A DNA stretch of 52,329 nt from Escherichia phage Mangalitsa: the sequence record NC_048799.1. The stretch is one strand, 5' to 3'. Shown here piece by piece: positions 2,897 through 40,858 of this stretch. The notes below the pieces were generated by a model. The model saw only the letters and a list, made by a program, of their open reading frames with translations. It did not search any database and was not told the DNA's origin. Numbering within the stretch: position 1 is the stretch's first letter; every line of letters starts with the position of its first letter. Position numbers and translations under genes: made by a program.

Positions 2897-3288
2897 ACAG
2901 AATACGGAGAAGTATTACTCACGTTGTTCGTGGGTTTCCGCATGTCATGTTGAAATCATTCTAGAAACATTTCAGCATGTCAACTAAACATACAGTGTTG
3001 TAATGATGTGGCAATCATTGAACTCCCTGTCTTTGGCCAGACAAAGTTCCAACAACCATGTGTGAAGTAGGATTATTATTCGAAACTGTTCTTCAACTAA
3101 GGCATGTTCACTTGTTTCAATATTGCTTCATCTCCTATTATCAAGGCCCACCCACAAGCCGGGAGATAACTTTGGCAAGACTGGAACTTTTGGACATGCT
3201 TCTTTCTTTCAATCAGAATTCGAAAGAAGAGAAGAGTCGGAGCAAAGTGGCATTACGAATCCCGTAGCCCGCCCCGATTTTGAGCAAC

Positions 3289-12764: not shown

Positions 12765-12784
12765 CATTAGTTGAATGTGAAAAG
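12765..12784 (+). promoter_or_regulatory. phage-RNAP-type promoter CATTAGTTGAATGTGAAAAG
   Basis: Motif family member upstream of the acidic protein gene. Confidence 0.55.
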
Positions 12785-13196: not shown

Positions 13197-14041
13197 GTTG
13201 CCAAGGGCAAACTTGAGAAGCTAAGCTAATTCGATCTGGCACGCACTGGAAGATTTCCGGTGCTGCCTTGAACCCATTCCGGCGTGAGTGGGCTTCAATG
13301 AGCATTCTTGTGATTAGAGTTGGGAGGTAGGCCGATGCCCAATCTCGTGGCCCAGACAAGAGTGTTCATTGAAGTTATTTCAATATGGATGTACAGTAGG
13401 ATGAGAAGCTTCTCCGATAAGAGGAGTGAAAGTAGCTGGAAGGACATGCCCACAGAACTGACCGAGACCATTACAGTAGTAGCGATTCACTACCGCGAAA
13501 CAGTATTGAAATTGGCAACGGTTCATGCGGAAGGGCATCAGTGAAATCTACGTTCAGTGCGCGTGGTGAAATGAAGGAGTAGTGTCCTGAGAATTAGCCC
13601 TGTCTGGTTAAATGCCAGAGTCCATATTAAAGTAACTGGAAACTATTCCTGTCAGGTACTCCTATAATGTCTGAAACGGAGTCAGGTCGCACCTGGTAGC
13701 CGAGGCTATTTACCTACAGATGGATACCTGACAGAAGTAGTTTTCTGAGTCTTACGACGGGCCTAAACTGCCTGGAGTTATTGCGACTGTTTTATTCATT
13801 TAAAATAAATGCAAATGATTCTGAAATGCGAGTTGCGGCTTAATTAAATTTGAGTCCTCTCCGTGGTCTTCCAATCCCATGTAACCAAATTTGGCGCATT
13901 GTGGCTTCGAGATGTGATTAATAAATCGGAGCAATAATTAATTTGTATTCTGCGATGCAGGGCAGGCTTAAGTCCCTCAGTGCGCGTAGGGATGTGATAG
14001 AGTACAAACTTAATTATTAACCTAACCTATAGAGAAACATT

Positions 14042-14296
14042 ATGGAAAGCATTGCCGTATTAATTGTTGGTGTTCTGTTGTTTGCTGCATACATGATTCC
14101 AACTCTCATTGCATTTAGTCGTGGTCATGCTTCCAAGTGGGGCATTTTCATTACAAATCTGTTACTAGGTTTAACAGGAATCTTTTGGGTTGCTGCATTA
14201 ATCTGGTCGCTGTCCAATAAAGGTCAGCAACAATCTCTTGTTGTAAATGTTGGCAGTAATAATGTCAGCAATGTATCACAAAAGGATTCGCTTTAA
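14042..14296 (+). CDS. superinfection-immunity-like small membrane protein
   Basis: Two predicted TM helices; MIPTLIAFSRGHASKWGIFITNLLLGLTGIFWVAALIWSL fits the A..R.H....I..N.LLG.T.I.W..A.IW pattern I recall for this family. Confidence 0.5.
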   Translation: MESIAVLIVGVLLFAAYMIPTLIAFSRGHASKWGIFITNLLLGLTGIFWVAALIWSLSNKGQQQSLVVNVGSNNVSNVSQKDSL

Positions 14297-14543
14297 GTGA
14301 ATTGCCCTGAGCATGGAAATAAACTGCTCTAACCGATGGTATCTACAAAGGTAGATTAAATCAGGTTGCCTGTTGGTACTTGGGTTCAACACCTGCTTGC
14401 ACTCGCAAAGTAGTGCCTTGTACCTGAGATGAAGTGAGTCGGGACCATCAATCCCACGTTATGTCAAAACACAGTAGGCGACTCACAGATTCTACAAGCC
14501 TCGCAGTTTGGGAAAACCTGCGTTACCAAAACCCACCTCATTC

Positions 14544-14639
14544 GGACGAGTAGCTCAGAAGGTCTGCTCCAGAGCTTAGTCAGGTAGAGCAATCTGTTCG
14601 ACAGATGTGTCGTTGGTTCGAATCCAACCTTGTCCACCA
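14544..14639 (+). tRNA. tRNA-like gene with an expanded D region; candidate anticodon UCG (Arg) if the anticodon loop is GTTCGAC
   Basis: 7-bp acceptor stem GGACGAG/CTTGTCC, canonical T-arm GTTGG-TTCGAAT-CCAAC, discriminator A and encoded CCA; D-arm-like GCTT-AGTCAGGTA-GAGC preceded by about 20 extra nt; 93 nt before CCA. Confidence 0.4.
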
Positions 14640-14669
14640 GCTTTAATAACCCGCAACACTGGAGTCCTT

Positions 14670-14810
14670 ATGGATTTTGATGCACTTGATAACTTAGACT
14701 TCGGTGCTGCCGAAGAAGCAATTGAAGAACTGAAGAAGAAACAGGACGAAGAAGCAATCGTTCCTGGTGCTGGCGACAACGACTGCTCAAGTGGTGCGTG
14801 CGCCATCTAA
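14670..14810 (+). CDS. hypothetical small acidic peptide (46 aa) with Cys-containing C-terminus
   Basis: GGAG RBS; MDFDALDNLDFGAAEE...GAGDNDCSSGACAI. Confidence 0.35.
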   Translation: MDFDALDNLDFGAAEEAIEELKKKQDEEAIVPGAGDNDCSSGACAI

Positions 14811-14818
14811 GGTGAATC

Positions 14819-15055
14819 ATGCAACAGCTTAAGTCAATCTTTCTTGGCGTCTTGACTGCATTGGGTATTCTCCTTGCAGTGTTCCTCAAAGGCAAAAGCT
14901 CAGGCAAAGCCGAGGAGCGCCAGGAAGCCAAAGAGAAGCAATTCGATTCCATTAAAGAATCTATCGAGATTAAAACGCATGTTCAGAAAGAAGTGTCTAG
15001 CAGTTCTGATAGCAATGTCGATAGTGAGTTGCTCTCAAAGTGGGTTCGTAAGTGA
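14819..15055 (+). CDS. small membrane-anchored protein, possible i-spanin-like
   Basis: N-terminal TM IFLGVLTALGILLAVFL followed by a charged helical region; AAGGTG RBS. Confidence 0.4.
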   Translation: MQQLKSIFLGVLTALGILLAVFLKGKSSGKAEERQEAKEKQFDSIKESIEIKTHVQKEVSSSSDSNVDSELLSKWVRK

Positions 15056-34580: not shown

Positions 34581-36029
34581 ATGGCAATTCCAATTTCCGA
34601 CATCATCCAGGTAAACATCGCGGTTAGTCCGAACGCTGTTGCTGTGGAAGGTTTTGGTCCTTTACTCTTTCTCTCTAAAGAGTTTACACCGACTGCTGCT
34701 GAAGTAGTTCCTGTTCGTCAATATACGAGCATGGCTGCGGTGTCTGCTGATTTCCCGTCTGGTGAAATCTACAATGCAGCTTTGGCATGGTATTCTCAGA
34801 AACCTACTCCGAAGTATTTCTTGGTTGGTGCAATCACCCATGAAGACGTAGTTCCTGCAACTGCTGGTACTGTCACTGCTTCTACTGCTGCAAACCTGGA
34901 CGACATTAAAGATGTAACTTCTGGTGTTATCTCCATCAACATCAATGGCGTTGATATGCACACTGACGCTATCAACTTCTCTACCGTAACAGACTTCGCT
35001 GGTGCTGCTGCTACAATGACTGCTGCATTTGTAACTGCTAATATCCCGGCAACCGTCTCTCAGACCACTGGTGTGTTTAAAATCACTACCAACCTGACTG
35101 GTGACACTGCTGTTATCGGTGATGTTTACGGTACTGCTGCAAGTGCTTTCAAGCTGGATGCAAACTCAAGTCCTGTATTTGTCCAGGGCAACGATGAACA
35201 GTCTATCGGCTCTGACTTGTCTGCAATCCTGAACTCCACTTACAACTTCTTCTTCGTTGCGATTGACCGTGAGTATCGTGGTGGCGCTGCTGGTGATAAC
35301 CAGATGACTGTTGCTAAGTGGGCAGAAGCAAACGAGAAAGTATTTGGCTGGGCAGACTCTGACCCTCAGATTCTGGTTGTTGGTGCTGAATCTAGCTTCA
35401 AGCGTGCCAAAGAACAGAACCTCCAGCGTACTTTGCTGGTGTATGATGCGTCTGATAATGGCGACGAATATCCAGAAATCTCTATCCTGGGTCGTGCATC
35501 AACTGTCAACTTCAACGTTGCAAACTCTGCGCTTGTTCTGGCATTCAAACAAGGTCCGGCTATCAAGACTGCTGACCTGTCTCCGAACCAGCTTGCTGCT
35601 CTCGAACGTGTAAATGGTAACGCATTCATCAACGTTGGTGGGAACACTATGTTCTACAACGGCAAGATGGCTGACGGTACTTGGTTCGATACTGTTCAGG
35701 GTGTGTCTTGGTTAACCTCCAAGATTCGCGCGAACGTGTTCAACCTGTTCTACACTTCCACTACCAAGATTCCTTGGACGGACACTGGCGTTGCTCTGGT
35801 CAACCAGCAAGTAACTCTGGCACTGGAACTGGCTGTAACCAATGGCTTAATCGCTCCAGGTTATGACAACGAAGGAACCTTCTACGCAGATGGTTATAAA
35901 GTATTGTCTACCGACTTGGCACTGATGCAGTCGCAGAAAGGTGCTCGAATCTGGGAAGGTACTTCCTTCATTGCAATTGGCTCTGGCGCATTGCAGGGTG
36001 CAGTTATCTCCGGCAACTTCGTTCAGTAA
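34581..36029 (+). CDS. putative contractile tail sheath protein
   Basis: 482-aa ORF directly upstream of a 151-aa tube-sized ORF, chaperone pair and tape measure; highly expressed codon usage. Confidence 0.45.
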   Translation: MAIPISDIIQVNIAVSPNAVAVEGFGPLLFLSKEFTPTAAEVVPVRQYTSMAAVSADFPSGEIYNAALAWYSQKPTPKYFLVGAITHEDVVPATAGTVTASTAANLDDIKDVTSGVISININGVDMHTDAINFSTVTDFAGAAATMTAAFVTANIPATVSQTTGVFKITTNLTGDTAVIGDVYGTAASAFKLDANSSPVFVQGNDEQSIGSDLSAILNSTYNFFFVAIDREYRGGAAGDNQMTVAKWAEANEKVFGWADSDPQILVVGAESSFKRAKEQNLQRTLLVYDASDNGDEYPEISILGRASTVNFNVANSALVLAFKQGPAIKTADLSPNQLAALERVNGNAFINVGGNTMFYNGKMADGTWFDTVQGVSWLTSKIRANVFNLFYTSTTKIPWTDTGVALVNQQVTLALELAVTNGLIAPGYDNEGTFYADGYKVLSTDLALMQSQKGARIWEGTSFIAIGSGALQGAVISGNFVQ

Positions 36030-36970: not shown

Positions 36971-37146
36971 TATCCCTGTTCCCAGACATAAAGTATTTTC
37001 TGCATCGTCCTATTATTGAAGATAGTTCCCTCTGTACTCTTCGTGAGTTGCAAGATGGAACTTATTCTTTAATAGATTTGTTGTTATTCCATGACATTCT
37101 CGATTTGCGTAAGAAACTCGAACCAGTAGAAGAAGACAATGGCTAA
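36874..37146 (+). CDS. -1 frame C-terminal extension of the tail assembly chaperone (GT-like fusion)
   Basis: Open -1 frame of about 90 codons with no start codon of its own, ending at TAA overlapping the tape-measure ATG. Confidence 0.5.
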   Translation, partial: QARARNQRTETVGGGGSIQAGRAEEFESGDSLVSLFPDIKYFLHRPIIEDSSLCTLRELQDGTYSLIDLLLFHDILDLRKKLEPVEEDNG

Positions 37147-40100
37147 TCAAAAAGATTTAATGAAGTTAGGCACTAGCGAGTTAATTGCTCTTGGTGCACA
37201 GAGCGGTCTGACTTTCCATGCTGGTATGAAGAAGTCGCACATGGTTCAACAACTTAGTGCGAGTGCTGCTTCTGGATGGATGGAAACAAATGCAGAATTA
37301 ATGGGTGGAACATTCGAAGATACTGGTGAAGTTTATACAGAATCTTTTGGGGATTCATCCATGATTTCAGACGCTGCTCATGTGGCTCAAATGCTCTCAG
37401 GAGCTGGTTACACAGAAGCGTTTCACAATGCAATGAACGGTCCACAACACCATGTAGAAGCAGTTCATGCATACATGGAAAGGCTCGGTGTCAACACAGA
37501 TGATGTGTGGATGCACATGCCGAAAGCCAATCCAAACTTGCCGCAGGGCAACTTCAATATGCTTAATGCCTATATGCGAGATACTTTGCAAGGGCATCAA
37601 GATATTATGCCGGAAATCCCAGGACATTACACTGGGGATATTATGGCAGAATACTCCACCAACCGTGGAAACATTGCTGACTCTTATAACTACATGGCCC
37701 ACATGTATGTTGACCGTGAGCAATATGCAAGTCATGAATTATACGCAAGAGACATTAGTCGAGTTGCCAAACGTCTGGAACAAGAGTTGCCTTCCTCCTT
37801 TAAGGAGATTGGGTATACCGCTGCCTCTAATGTAGGAAATAAATCGGCCCCACATATTTCATACATGGATGCACTTCCGCAAATTGGCTCTCCATCAATT
37901 GTTGCTGGCATTTCACATCCTCGCCAACCTCTTAATGCGTCTGGCTTACCACTTGGTTCTTATGGCTCTGGCATCAATCCAGAATATTCCCTCACTGCAT
38001 CATTAACTGGTGGCACTGGTTGGAGCGAACCAAGCAAGGCATTATATTCATCTATTAGCGAGGCTGTTAAGTCTGCTGCTAAAGTTTACTCTGGCAAAAC
38101 CGGAATGAACAACACGCGTCATGAAGTATCTGACCGTGACATGATTATGGATTCCGCTACTCGTTATGCTGATTTGGAAGAAGCTCGTAGTGGATATGCC
38201 AACCTTAAGTCAGAGCTTGCTGACGAACCTTCATATTCTGCATCAAGTGTTCGGGCAATTCTCGAAAACACTTATGACAAAATGGATGCTGAACCTATTC
38301 GCATTCCAGAAATGAAGTCTGCGTCACAGAAGATTGTTAAGGATTCACAATCAACTTCTACAGAGTTTACTGCACAACTTGGTGAAGCAACCAACTGGAA
38401 CTCTGCCAGAATGCGTCGTGAAGAACTTGCGATTGCAAACATGGATAGTGCAGGATTCAGGGATGTATCAGACTACGGAACTGGAAAGTCCGAGTCTCCA
38501 ATCAAGTTCCATGACCTTGAGCAAGGTAGTCAAGAGTGGTTAGACTTTCGTAAGCAGTACGACGTAACTGGTTCTACAGTTGGCACGTTCCTTGGTAACA
38601 ACGCATACACCCGACCTTGGGCTGGAATGGTTGACAAACTTGGAATATCCAGAAGTAAAGAGCCAAGCGATTTCACTAAGAAGATGTTCGCTGATGGTCA
38701 CAGAACGGAAGAAGAAGCACGCGCTCGCGTAAGTAAGGAATTTGGATTCAATATTGCTCAAACTGGCGCTATAACAAATGACAACTATCCCGCCTTTATG
38801 TATTCTCCTGACGGCCTTATTGGTGATGACGCCATTTGGGAGCATAAGAATCCGCAAAGGGCTGGTAAGTTTGCTGACCTTCTTAGTGGCGACCATCCAG
38901 ACTACATGGACCAAGTTCAATTTGGTATGCACGTATCTGGTCGTAACCGCGCTCTGTTCTCTCAAACTATCAACAACGAAACCCGTTCGCAATGGATTGA
39001 GAAGGACGAAGGATGGTACGAAAGAAACCGAAATCGTCTTGATTCTGTGCTTGGTCGTCTTGATGCTGGGCGAGAGTTTGTTAGAAACAATCCTTCACTA
39101 GACCGAGAAGAACTTGTCGCTGGTGCTCGTAGTGCAGTGGTGGGTGATGGCATCTGGAAGGATGTTAAGCAACGCTCTAATCGTGGGTTTAGTCCTGCTG
39201 CTGGTACGTCAGAAGACCCATTCATTGGTTCTCGTCCTTCTTTCGACCCAAATCCTGGCGGCACTTCTGACTACAAACCAAACTTTGTTATGCACGAGCA
39301 AAACTTCCCAGCTGTAGTTGGTGATGGAAGTAATGACTCAATGGCCCTTTCTGTTAAGCGTGGTATCTTAGCGGCACAGGAAGAAAACAAACAGAAAGGT
39401 ATCTCTGGTGTAGATGCCGATTTCGATGGCAAACAAGATTCCACTGTTGGTTGGAATCAGGAACGTTTCGATGCAGCAAATGGTGGCGGCAGTGGTGGCG
39501 GCGGTGGTCGAGGATATTTCTCGGCGGGTGGAAACTTTGGCGATGACTTTGGAAAGGCAGGTGGTGCACTTGCTTCTGGCATCGCTGGTGGTAGCTTATC
39601 TTCTGCATCAAACGGTGTGATGCAAGCACTGATGGCAACTCCTGCTGGACGTATGGCGGCAGTTGGTATTGGTGCAATTCAGATTGGTAACGAAGCTGCT
39701 GACTTCATGAATGATTACATTGGTCAATCTCTTGACGCTGGCGTAGCTAATCCAAATGAATACTCTTCCATGTCGCAAGGCTTGGAAATGTTGGGGCTAA
39801 ACTCCCAGCAAGCTAACCGTTTGAATCAAACCACACATAGTGCCTACAACACCATGCTTAACGGCGACCCCAGTGCCGCTGTGAACATTGTTCGTGGCAG
39901 TAGGGGATTGCTCACCATAGGTGATATTCGCTCGACTGGCGGCGACCCCGTGGCCTTAGCTCGCATTATGCAGGAAAGGGGCAAGGAACGTGGCTGGAGT
40001 CAGGCCCGTATCGCTGGTGCTGCCGAGATGGCTGGCCTACAGGGTATGGCGAGAGCATACGACCGCACGGAATACAGCCATGAGCGAGCAGGTTCGGTGG

Positions 40101-40858
40101 TAGAAAGCGGCAGAAACTCTGACTTTGCCGAAGGTATGGCCCAATCAGAAATGTTGCAGGTGGAGCGCGCACAGCTCCTGCCAGGGTATAACGTGCCACA
40201 AAGTGTGTTATCTCATGGTGCTGCACTGTTCGAAGCTGGAAGCACTGCTGCTGGTGCTGCTAACTCTGGATACAGCCAAGCCCGACAAGTTGCTGCAAAC
40301 GTTTATGATTTTATTGCTGGTGAAGAGTCTGGTGGCAGGGAATACAACAAGGATGGTACACGAGTTACAAGCCCAACTGGTGCTCGTGGAATCATGCAGG
40401 TTCTTCCTTCTACTGCTCGTGACCCAGGTTATGGAATCAAACCTTCTGATGGAAGTCCTGAAGATGATGCTCGTGTTGGTCGTGAATACTACGATGCGAT
40501 GTACAAACGATTCGGTGGCGACCATGAGAAAGCAATGGCTGCTTACACGGATGGTGCTGGAACTGTTGACAAGGCTGTCGATAAGTTTGGAATGGATTGG
40601 CTCAGTGCTGTTCCGGCTCAGGCTCAGAAGCGAGTTAAAGCGTATCGTGATTGGGCTAAGTCTTCCGAAGGCTTGGATGAAGGTGCGACTGGATTCACAC
40701 GGAATGGTATCTCCTATGGTCAAGCTCAAACCACTGTTAACGTGAAGATTGATGCGAAGGTTAATAACCAAACTGCATCTGCCACTGTAGCTGTTCCTGG
40801 CGGTCAGACTGTGACTCAGCAAATGAACATGCACAATGGTGCGCAACAAAGAAGATAA
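37139..40858 (+). CDS. tail tape measure protein with C-terminal soluble lytic transglycosylase domain
   Basis: 1239 aa; Gly-rich segments; transglycosylase signature GEESGGREYN...GARGIMQVLPSTARDPGYG. Confidence 0.75.
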   Translation: MANQKDLMKLGTSELIALGAQSGLTFHAGMKKSHMVQQLSASAASGWMETNAELMGGTFEDTGEVYTESFGDSSMISDAAHVAQMLSGAGYTEAFHNAMNGPQHHVEAVHAYMERLGVNTDDVWMHMPKANPNLPQGNFNMLNAYMRDTLQGHQDIMPEIPGHYTGDIMAEYSTNRGNIADSYNYMAHMYVDREQYASHELYARDISRVAKRLEQELPSSFKEIGYTAASNVGNKSAPHISYMDALPQIGSPSIVAGISHPRQPLNASGLPLGSYGSGINPEYSLTASLTGGTGWSEPSKALYSSISEAVKSAAKVYSGKTGMNNTRHEVSDRDMIMDSATRYADLEEARSGYANLKSELADEPSYSASSVRAILENTYDKMDAEPIRIPEMKSASQKIVKDSQSTSTEFTAQLGEATNWNSARMRREELAIANMDSAGFRDVSDYGTGKSESPIKFHDLEQGSQEWLDFRKQYDVTGSTVGTFLGNNAYTRPWAGMVDKLGISRSKEPSDFTKKMFADGHRTEEEARARVSKEFGFNIAQTGAITNDNYPAFMYSPDGLIGDDAIWEHKNPQRAGKFADLLSGDHPDYMDQVQFGMHVSGRNRALFSQTINNETRSQWIEKDEGWYERNRNRLDSVLGRLDAGREFVRNNPSLDREELVAGARSAVVGDGIWKDVKQRSNRGFSPAAGTSEDPFIGSRPSFDPNPGGTSDYKPNFVMHEQNFPAVVGDGSNDSMALSVKRGILAAQEENKQKGISGVDADFDGKQDSTVGWNQERFDAANGGGSGGGGGRGYFSAGGNFGDDFGKAGGALASGIAGGSLSSASNGVMQALMATPAGRMAAVGIGAIQIGNEAADFMNDYIGQSLDAGVANPNEYSSMSQGLEMLGLNSQQANRLNQTTHSAYNTMLNGDPSAAVNIVRGSRGLLTIGDIRSTGGDPVALARIMQERGKERGWSQARIAGAAEMAGLQGMARAYDRTEYSHERAGSVVESGRNSDFAEGMAQSEMLQVERAQLLPGYNVPQSVLSHGAALFEAGSTAAGAANSGYSQARQVAANVYDFIAGEESGGREYNKDGTRVTSPTGARGIMQVLPSTARDPGYGIKPSDGSPEDDARVGREYYDAMYKRFGGDHEKAMAAYTDGAGTVDKAVDKFGMDWLSAVPAQAQKRVKAYRDWAKSSEGLDEGATGFTRNGISYGQAQTTVNVKIDAKVNNQTASATVAVPGGQTVTQQMNMHNGAQQRR

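Follow-up and report, generated by a model that had tools for sequence, protein, structure and literature searches.

The window analysed here, that is, the whole stretch of 52,329 bp (G+C 44.01%), comes from the E. coli myophage Mangalitsa, which has been described previously (PMC6753284). The genome carries genes for a single-subunit RNA polymerase, a primase-helicase, a DNA polymerase, a terminase and a tail sheath, and the region of interest is approximately 90% identical to phages of the genus Carltongylesvirus (Chaseviridae), namely phiEcoM-GJ1, ST32, DE15, SA91KD, TH53 and the Yersinia PYps phages. A record labelled Staphylococcus phage Pel53 (PP952070.1; host S. hyicus) matches the E. 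coli members of this group at about 90% identity over the same region, and its host label looks doubtful. The gene under study, imm, is encoded on the + strand, as are all of the genes around it, in a neighbourhood of early/middle genes that precedes thyX, the primase-helicase and the DNA polymerase. Table 1 collects the features of the locus.

Table 1. Features at and around imm, in window coordinates.
Feature	Position	Strand	Basis or remark
phiEcoM-GJ1-class phage promoter motif ATTAGTTGAATGTGAA, the closest one upstream of imm	12766..12781	+	motif scan
tmRNA-like RNA core	13739..13933	+	BLAST, tag frame, covariation
Tag frame ANDSEMRVAA*	13811-13843	+	GCA AAT GAT TCT GAA ATG CGA GTT GCG GCT TAA
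Hairpin A	13862-13866/13877-13881	+	covariation
Pseudoknot A	13871-13874/13891-13894	+	covariation
Pseudoknot B	13895-13899/13912-13916	+	covariation
Hairpin B	13904-13910/13926-13932	+	covariation
Genus-specific conserved non-coding spacer, RNA core to cassette	13934..14017	+	96-98% identical in relatives
Left cassette junction CTTAATTAT	14008..14017	+	TAATT-type motif; also bounds the 186-bp cassette and the empty site
imm cassette, 277 bp (24-nt leader TAACCTAACCTATAGAGAAACATT plus ORF)	14018..14294	+	no counterpart in relatives
imm CDS, Imm_superinfect family	14042..14296 incl. stop	+	ATG start, 84 aa; ORF list and profiles
Predicted transmembrane helix 1	14045..14119 (aa 2-26)	+	invariant Y17, P20, A24
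Short basic loop SRGHASK	14120..14134 (aa 26-32)	+	R27 invariant, = T4 R33
Predicted transmembrane helix 2	14135..14215 (aa 32-58)	+	L44 at T4 W50 position; W49, W55 invariant
C-terminal tail, polar, low-confidence	14216..14293 (aa 59-84)	+	common to N4-like homologues
Right junction region	14286-14303	window	conserved; takes in the end of imm
Right-flank motif GCCCTGAGCATGGAAATAAACTGCTC	14304..14329	+	other genera of Chaseviridae (PM1, Faunus, phiA050) conserve it behind the cassette site
96-nt tRNA-like sequence	14544..14639	+	acceptor GGACGAG/CTTGTCC, T arm GTTGG-TTCGAAT-CCAAC, encoded ACCA
Rz-like i-spanin, next downstream protein gene of known function	14819..15055	+	ORF and similarity

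The first-pass annotation had described an 84-residue open reading frame with two transmembrane segments. The frame is present exactly as described, and its hydrophobic segments appear both as two peaks of hydropathy (above 1.6 at residues 1-27 and 33-58; Kyte-Doolittle, 19-residue windows) and as the two helices of an AlphaFold2 model computed with 22 homologues (residues 2-26 and 32-58; mean pLDDT 69). In the same model residues 59-84 are disordered, and this tail is polar and nearly uncharged. Comparison of imm with seven orthologous copies from public assemblies gives dN/dS ratios of 0.05-0.12. Alleles with 92.5-93.7% DNA identity yield ratios of 0.09-0.12, and the most diverged allele, whose DNA is 79.8% identical (dS 1.4) between flanks that are 89-94% identical, yields 0.05. 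The frame is unbroken in every copy seen. Because dN/dS is confined to this low range, we treat imm as a working gene; the pattern of substitution indicates that the ORF is real and under selection, and more than a chance occurrence.

A search of profile collections for superinfection-immunity families, which had been suggested as one way to check this gene, is positive for two families. Pfam PF14373 (Imm_superinfect) matches Mangalitsa Imm with 63.8 bits (cut-off 27.9; E 1.4e-17), and the match runs from position 2 to the end of the 42-position profile; the match to PHROG 1039 ('immunity to superinfection') has an E-value of 3e-29. For comparison, T4 Imm (P08986, 83 aa; imm sequence from NC_000866), with which the family was founded, scores 58.2 bits on the same Pfam model, and when the two proteins are aligned directly they are 34% identical across 77 residues (E 6e-12). 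The proposed family match is therefore borne out, and on the evidence of these alignments Mangalitsa Imm belongs to the T4 Imm family of small membrane proteins.

The features of PF14373, that is, a small protein of about 60-100 aa with two helices joined by a short basic loop, are all found in Mangalitsa Imm, and the conserved core residues that it keeps include R27, which corresponds to T4 R33. Across 22 homologues, T4 included, the residues Y17, P20, A24, R27, I35, W49 and W55 are invariant. Mangalitsa Imm and T4 Imm thus share membership of PF14373, a similar length, two hydrophobic helices around a short basic loop, the Y..P...A..RG motif and the two tryptophans of helix 2, and both are encoded by phages amid early genes. 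They differ in that identity is only 34%, and in that the loop residue W50 of T4 Imm is a leucine in Mangalitsa: all seven Carltongylesvirus alleles have L44 at the aligned position, and each of the 15 other sequences aligned has tryptophan there. The tryptophan at this position is a functional residue of T4 Imm and is no criterion of membership in PF14373. A further difference is that T4 Imm is paired with the periplasmic protein Spackle.

Homologues belonging to PF14373 occur in 830 phage records, which include siphoviruses, podoviruses and myoviruses. The closest outside the genus are encoded by N4-like phages of Gamaleyavirus and Moovirus, with 61-66% identity over 95-99% of the protein and 69-76% DNA identity in the core; as best matches in the phage collection described below, such genes span 60-68%. 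These N4-like proteins (G7C gp27.1, Shigella virus Moo19 gp41, that of Bp4, and others) share with Mangalitsa Imm the tail VNVGS.N..NVSQ, and each is encoded by a stand-alone small early/middle gene near thyX. They differ in having tryptophan at the T4 W50 position, in belonging to podoviruses, and in being annotated by similarity only; our literature search found no functional test of any of them. No protein at least 80% identical to Mangalitsa Imm is encoded in a collection of 50,697 phage records, and nine clusters with 80-98% identity are present in a large protein database, one of them on 22 contigs. Searches of PADLOC, which holds no model for the family, of NCBIfam and of PDB sequences returned nothing useful for Mangalitsa Imm, and a literature search found no paper on PF14373.

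We now consider the DNA in which imm sits. The cassette is missing from all five relatives inspected, and the sequences on its two sides are 96-98% (13734-14017) and 92-95% (14295-15000) identical among them; TH53 (MT446419), for example, is approximately 91% identical to Mangalitsa and is without imm. At the same site GJ1, DE15, TH53 and PYps16N carry an unrelated segment of 186 bp, and in SA91KD the site is empty. Among metagenome and Logan assemblies, L012 has imm alone, as Mangalitsa does; in L006, L009 and L010 imm comes after the 186-bp segment. One site thus occurs in four states, namely empty, with the 186-bp non-coding cassette, with imm alone, and with both (L001, L003, L004, L005, L006 and L012), and dozens of metagenome-assembled relatives carry imm at this very position. 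The states share a TAATT-type junction motif, which reads CTTAATTAT, CCTAATTC or CCT(C/T)ATT(G/A)TTAACCT, and on the other side the last codons of imm, GAT TCG CTT TAA, run into the conserved right junction. The imm cassette is optional in Carltongylesvirus genomes, where it has a single fixed position. In the Aeromonas phage phiA050 (L022 1927-2196) the equivalent site holds an unrelated ORF.

Two other features of the cassette site were considered and set aside. The product gp30 (80 aa) of phiEcoM-GJ1 might have been a conserved protein at this site, but a 1-nt indel breaks its frame in Mangalitsa and in other relatives, and for this reason we treat the gp30 region as non-coding. A helix bridging the site (13955-13964 with 14304-14316) needs a GCAGG duplication that is found in Mangalitsa only, and is not kept in relatives.

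The gene had also been said to be preceded by a promoter half-site, and this we could not uphold: between 12700 and 15300 a scan for sigma-70 promoters detects none on the + strand, and the 19-nt sequence upstream of the imm start occurs once in the window. A leader resembling T3 or SP6 promoters by eye (ATTAACC...CTATAGAGA) was rejected as a promoter of imm's own, since it is likewise unique in the window and unlike the annotated promoter class of the phage. The 24-nt leader is conserved along with the cassette and is unique in the genome, and the Shine-Dalgarno sequence, AGAGA, is weak. The phiEcoM-GJ1-type promoter motif ATTAGTTGGAnGnGnA, by contrast with the 2.95 matches expected, has 15 matches in the window when up to 3 mismatches are allowed. 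Almost all are on the + strand and in the early region (133, 2622, 2878, 3750, 6852, 10593, 10781, 12434 and 12766), and the last of these is the likely source of read-through transcription into imm.

The flanks of imm had been described as structured and free of open reading frames. This description stands: there is no conserved ORF in 13197-14041 or in 14297-14606, the left flank contains four helices supported by covariation, two of which form pseudoknots, and the right flank contains a tRNA-like sequence. The left flank in particular resembles part of a tmRNA. The sequence AAAUAAAU stands directly before the tag frame, so that, as in tmRNA (SsrA), a resume-type AAUAAAU is followed by a 10-codon tag of the form AN(D/E)....(A/V)A; the tag of E. 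coli SsrA is ANDENYALAA. The likeness extends to a stop codon placed in a hairpin, and to pseudoknots downstream and probably one upstream. Two hairpins follow the tag, and the loop of each pairs with sequence close by to make a pseudoknot, downstream in one case and upstream in the other; the tag hairpin is supported by covariation as well. In an alignment of 33 diverse sequences, 96.6% of the cells in the four helices (18 pairs) are paired, against 29-47% for control helices slid along the alignment. Compensatory changes occur at 11 of the 18 pairs, and none of 500 shuffles attains the value observed.

Related cores are widespread. BLAST finds them with 71-87% identity in other genera of Chaseviridae and in phages unrelated to these, namely the Ackermannviridae PC3 and Magnus, Klebsiella phage S13b and Acinetobacter phage AB4P2, and they occur in 72-kb contigs, lambdoid prophages and P1-like plasmids too. 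A pattern scan of IMG/VR returned at least 120 stretches; among the matches listed, 56 have a 10-residue tag of the form AN[DE]...[AV]A, and the tags at these 56 loci vary synonymously at third positions. Among complete E. coli genomes, 656 of 5,426 contain a related core, which is always unannotated; among its locations are the late leaders of lambdoid prophages and, on P1-like plasmids, the interval between a Dam-family methyltransferase gene and tRNA-Asn.

The difference from tmRNA lies in the tRNA-like domain. Neither ARAGORN at default settings nor Rfam at gathering thresholds reports a tmRNA in the window; the Rfam tmRNA models, all of them below threshold, score 15-27 bits on the left-flank RNA against cut-offs of 47-84. 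A tRNA-like domain with alanine identity (an acceptor stem with G3:U70, a T arm and CCA) was not found with either program, and we therefore call the RNA tmRNA-like, and not tmRNA. The possibility of a canonical or permuted tmRNA was rejected: relaxed ARAGORN gives the right tag, but places the tRNA domain at inconsistent, non-homologous spots and yields many false positives. Homology of the full flank to E. coli ssrA, drawn from a by-eye alignment, was rejected also, as BLAST gives E >0.7 and the tag region alone aligns. No paper on these tag peptides, or on a phage element described as 'tmRNA-like', turned up in our literature search.

Several hairpins accompany this core. In comparison with SA91KD and phiA050, Mangalitsa has a 105-nt insertion at 13635-13739, between AAGTA direct repeats, which folds into a hairpin whose 10-bp stem is perfect (13649-13658/13725-13734), directly 5' of the core, and which may be a processing site. 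Further upstream, at 13262-13300 in the ORF-free stretch that follows a 112-aa ORF, the hairpin TTGAACCCA...TGGGCTTCAA is conserved in Erwinia phage Faunus, Aeromonas phage phiA050 and Pectobacterium phage PM1. Long hairpins of the form CACAACAGGTAAGAGCA...TGCTCTTTCCGTTGTG flank the core and the adjacent tRNA genes in several phage groups (lambdoid L046, L069 and L097; P1-like plasmid L145, at 2660-2760 and 3115-3130; L017, L018 and L019), and have the look of RNase III sites or of boundaries between modules; a hairpin of this type is presumably present in the late leader of phage lambda as well. In a group of 45-48 kb phages that have an AB4P2-like core, this core is preceded on the same strand, at a distance of 1.3-1.8 kb, by an Imm_superinfect gene (L025 7413-7619, L054 10516-10722, L059 1551-1865, L055, L057 and L116). 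The proteins are 33-40% identical to Mangalitsa Imm, and this is a second, independent case of proximity between imm and a tmRNA-like core, making two unrelated groups in all.

On the right flank, the tRNA-like sequence has a 7-bp acceptor stem, a canonical T arm and some 21 extra nucleotides after the 5' strand of the D-stem, and its homologue in phiEcoM-GJ1 is annotated in GenBank as 'tRNA-Arg, may contain an intron'. ARAGORN finds no tRNA in the whole window; in some relatives its call for the homologous place is tRNA-Leu(cag) or tRNA-Ser(gct). The Rfam tRNA model scores 27.9 bits here, just below its cut-off of 29, and 41.8-45.6 bits in relatives. The 'tRNA island' of the first-pass annotation is thus overstated, being a single tRNA-like sequence. 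Beyond it, a lipoprotein-type o-spanin frame embedded in the i-spanin gene extends to 15188.

The wider stretch of 10-16 kb had been proposed as an accessory island for exclusion and host interaction. It is indeed mosaic and rich in indels (85-90% coverage in an 8-kb comparison), and its variability comprises insertions of HNH endonucleases, the cassette states and the 105-nt hairpin insertion. To call it accessory and variable is reasonable. An assignment to exclusion or host interaction applies to two genes at most: the stretch contains an anti-restriction gene, Rz-like spanin genes and four conserved ORFs without known function, and the bulk of it is non-coding RNA, not exclusion genes.

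We turn to the function of imm. In T4, Imm is made early, sits in the inner membrane and prevents the translocation of genomes; it acts on T-even relatives of T4. By analogy, we favour the reading that the product of imm is a superinfection exclusion protein of the T4 Imm type, acting at the inner membrane, and we assign to this reading a rough probability of 60%. An infecting Mangalitsa phage would produce, early and probably by read-through from the promoter at 12766, an 84-residue protein whose predicted two helices would place it in the inner membrane. There Imm would bar the genome of a later-arriving phage from crossing the cytoplasmic membrane, and it might do so by engaging the membrane-inserting ejection protein or tape-measure protein of the incoming virion, as proposed for T4.

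The T4 protein provides the detail on which this analogy rests, and functional testing within PF14373 is confined to it. According to a preprint of 2026, T4 Imm co-purifies with the tape measure gp29 and binds its helical-bundle domain, and the substitutions R33A and W50A lower exclusion, R33A with loss of activity and W50A with a weakening of it, W50 being a loop residue that faces the tape measure (bioRxiv 10.64898/2026.03.06.709160). Binding to gp29 is so far a property reported for T4 Imm, and thus a point of difference from the Mangalitsa protein (bioRxiv 10.64898/2026.03.06.709160). A similar mode of action is proposed for HK97 gp15 and other exclusion proteins that target the tape measure, for which the preprint cites an inner-membrane block of genome translocation via the incoming tape measure; HK97 gp15 differs in being encoded by a prophage, and we liken it to Imm by proposed action, claiming no relationship of sequence.

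Mangalitsa has a contractile tail: after the tail sheath gene, at 34581, comes a gene (37139-40858) for a virion protein of 1239 aa that has a lytic domain, and because of these features a T4-like step of membrane penetration exists to be blocked. The polymorphism of presence and absence at one site fits a dispensable competition gene. Several observations weigh against the exclusion reading. According to the alignment, the contact residue W50 of T4 is replaced by L44 throughout the Carltongylesvirus alleles. No promoter of imm's own was found, and its Shine-Dalgarno sequence is weak. Finally, the T4 mechanism of tape-measure binding may not transfer to Mangalitsa, because the closest homologues are those of N4-like podophages, which are without the tape measure of a contractile tail.

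The same substitution at the W50 position lends some weight to another reading, in which the fold is that of T4 Imm and the job is a different one. Imm might guard the membrane of the infected cell against pore-forming colicins or tailocins, against lysis from without or against a membrane effector of host abortive infection, or it might alter a component of the host inner membrane. PF14373 is a large and mostly uncharacterised family, spread across phages of all three tail types in 830 records, T4 Imm alone has been tested, and the authors of the T4 study themselves compare Imm to colicin immunity proteins (bioRxiv 10.64898/2026.03.06.709160). Against this, homology to T4 Imm covers the whole membrane core, including the tested position R33, and the locus offers no pointer to another target. 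We therefore regard a different job as unlikely, at perhaps one chance in a handful.

Exclusion by Imm might instead be aimed at heterologous competitors, such as N4-like phages or other gut coliphages, and not at sister phages of Carltongylesvirus. The nearest homologues in Gamaleyavirus and Moovirus, the lineage-specific L44 substitution and the lack of imm in most Carltongylesvirus genomes would all agree with such a choice of target. T4 Imm, however, acts on T-even relatives, and T4 is the sole member of the family for which there are data on specificity; a heterologous target is, in our judgement, distinctly improbable.

A small protein with two transmembrane segments, encoded 520 nt upstream of Rz-like spanin genes, could in principle be a lysis-timing protein, that is, a class II holin or an antiholin. 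But the strong family match is to Imm and to no holin family, most relatives are lytic phages and yet do without imm, the tail of the protein is polar and almost without charge, and a tRNA-like gene and another ORF separate imm from the spanins, so that we give this reading very little credence. That imm is a decaying or chance ORF without function might be suggested by its being optional, without its own promoter and with a weak ribosome-binding site, but this is refuted by dN/dS of 0.05-0.12, even for the allele with dS 1.4, by the profile match at E 1.4e-17 and by the intact frame.

Exclusion of the T4 type, then, is the reading of the protein that we prefer. As for the locus, we suggest tentatively, and at odds somewhat worse than even, that imm occupies a cassette-exchange site within a composite non-coding RNA locus, whose core would be the tmRNA-like RNA, and in which small ORFs would be swapped at TAATT-type junctions and carried on the same transcript.

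By itself, imm is a gene of an ordinary kind from a family that is already known. Its presence adds the Chaseviridae, which are therapeutic-candidate coliphages, to the hosts of T4-type exclusion proteins, and the natural series of sites that are empty or hold the alternative cassette, imm or both could be used to probe what Imm homologues exclude. The series comes with a natural change from tryptophan to leucine at the very position for which, in T4, contact with the tape measure is reported. Where only some strains in a genus carry an exclusion gene, this also bears directly on how phages are mixed in cocktails. The neighbouring tmRNA-like RNA, being widespread, structured and unannotated, is the more novel lead. 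If the view of a composite RNA locus is true, phage RNAs would have gained a new class, one whose members mimic trans-translation or hijack it, and the tmRNA-like RNA could make interference by phages with ribosome rescue testable.
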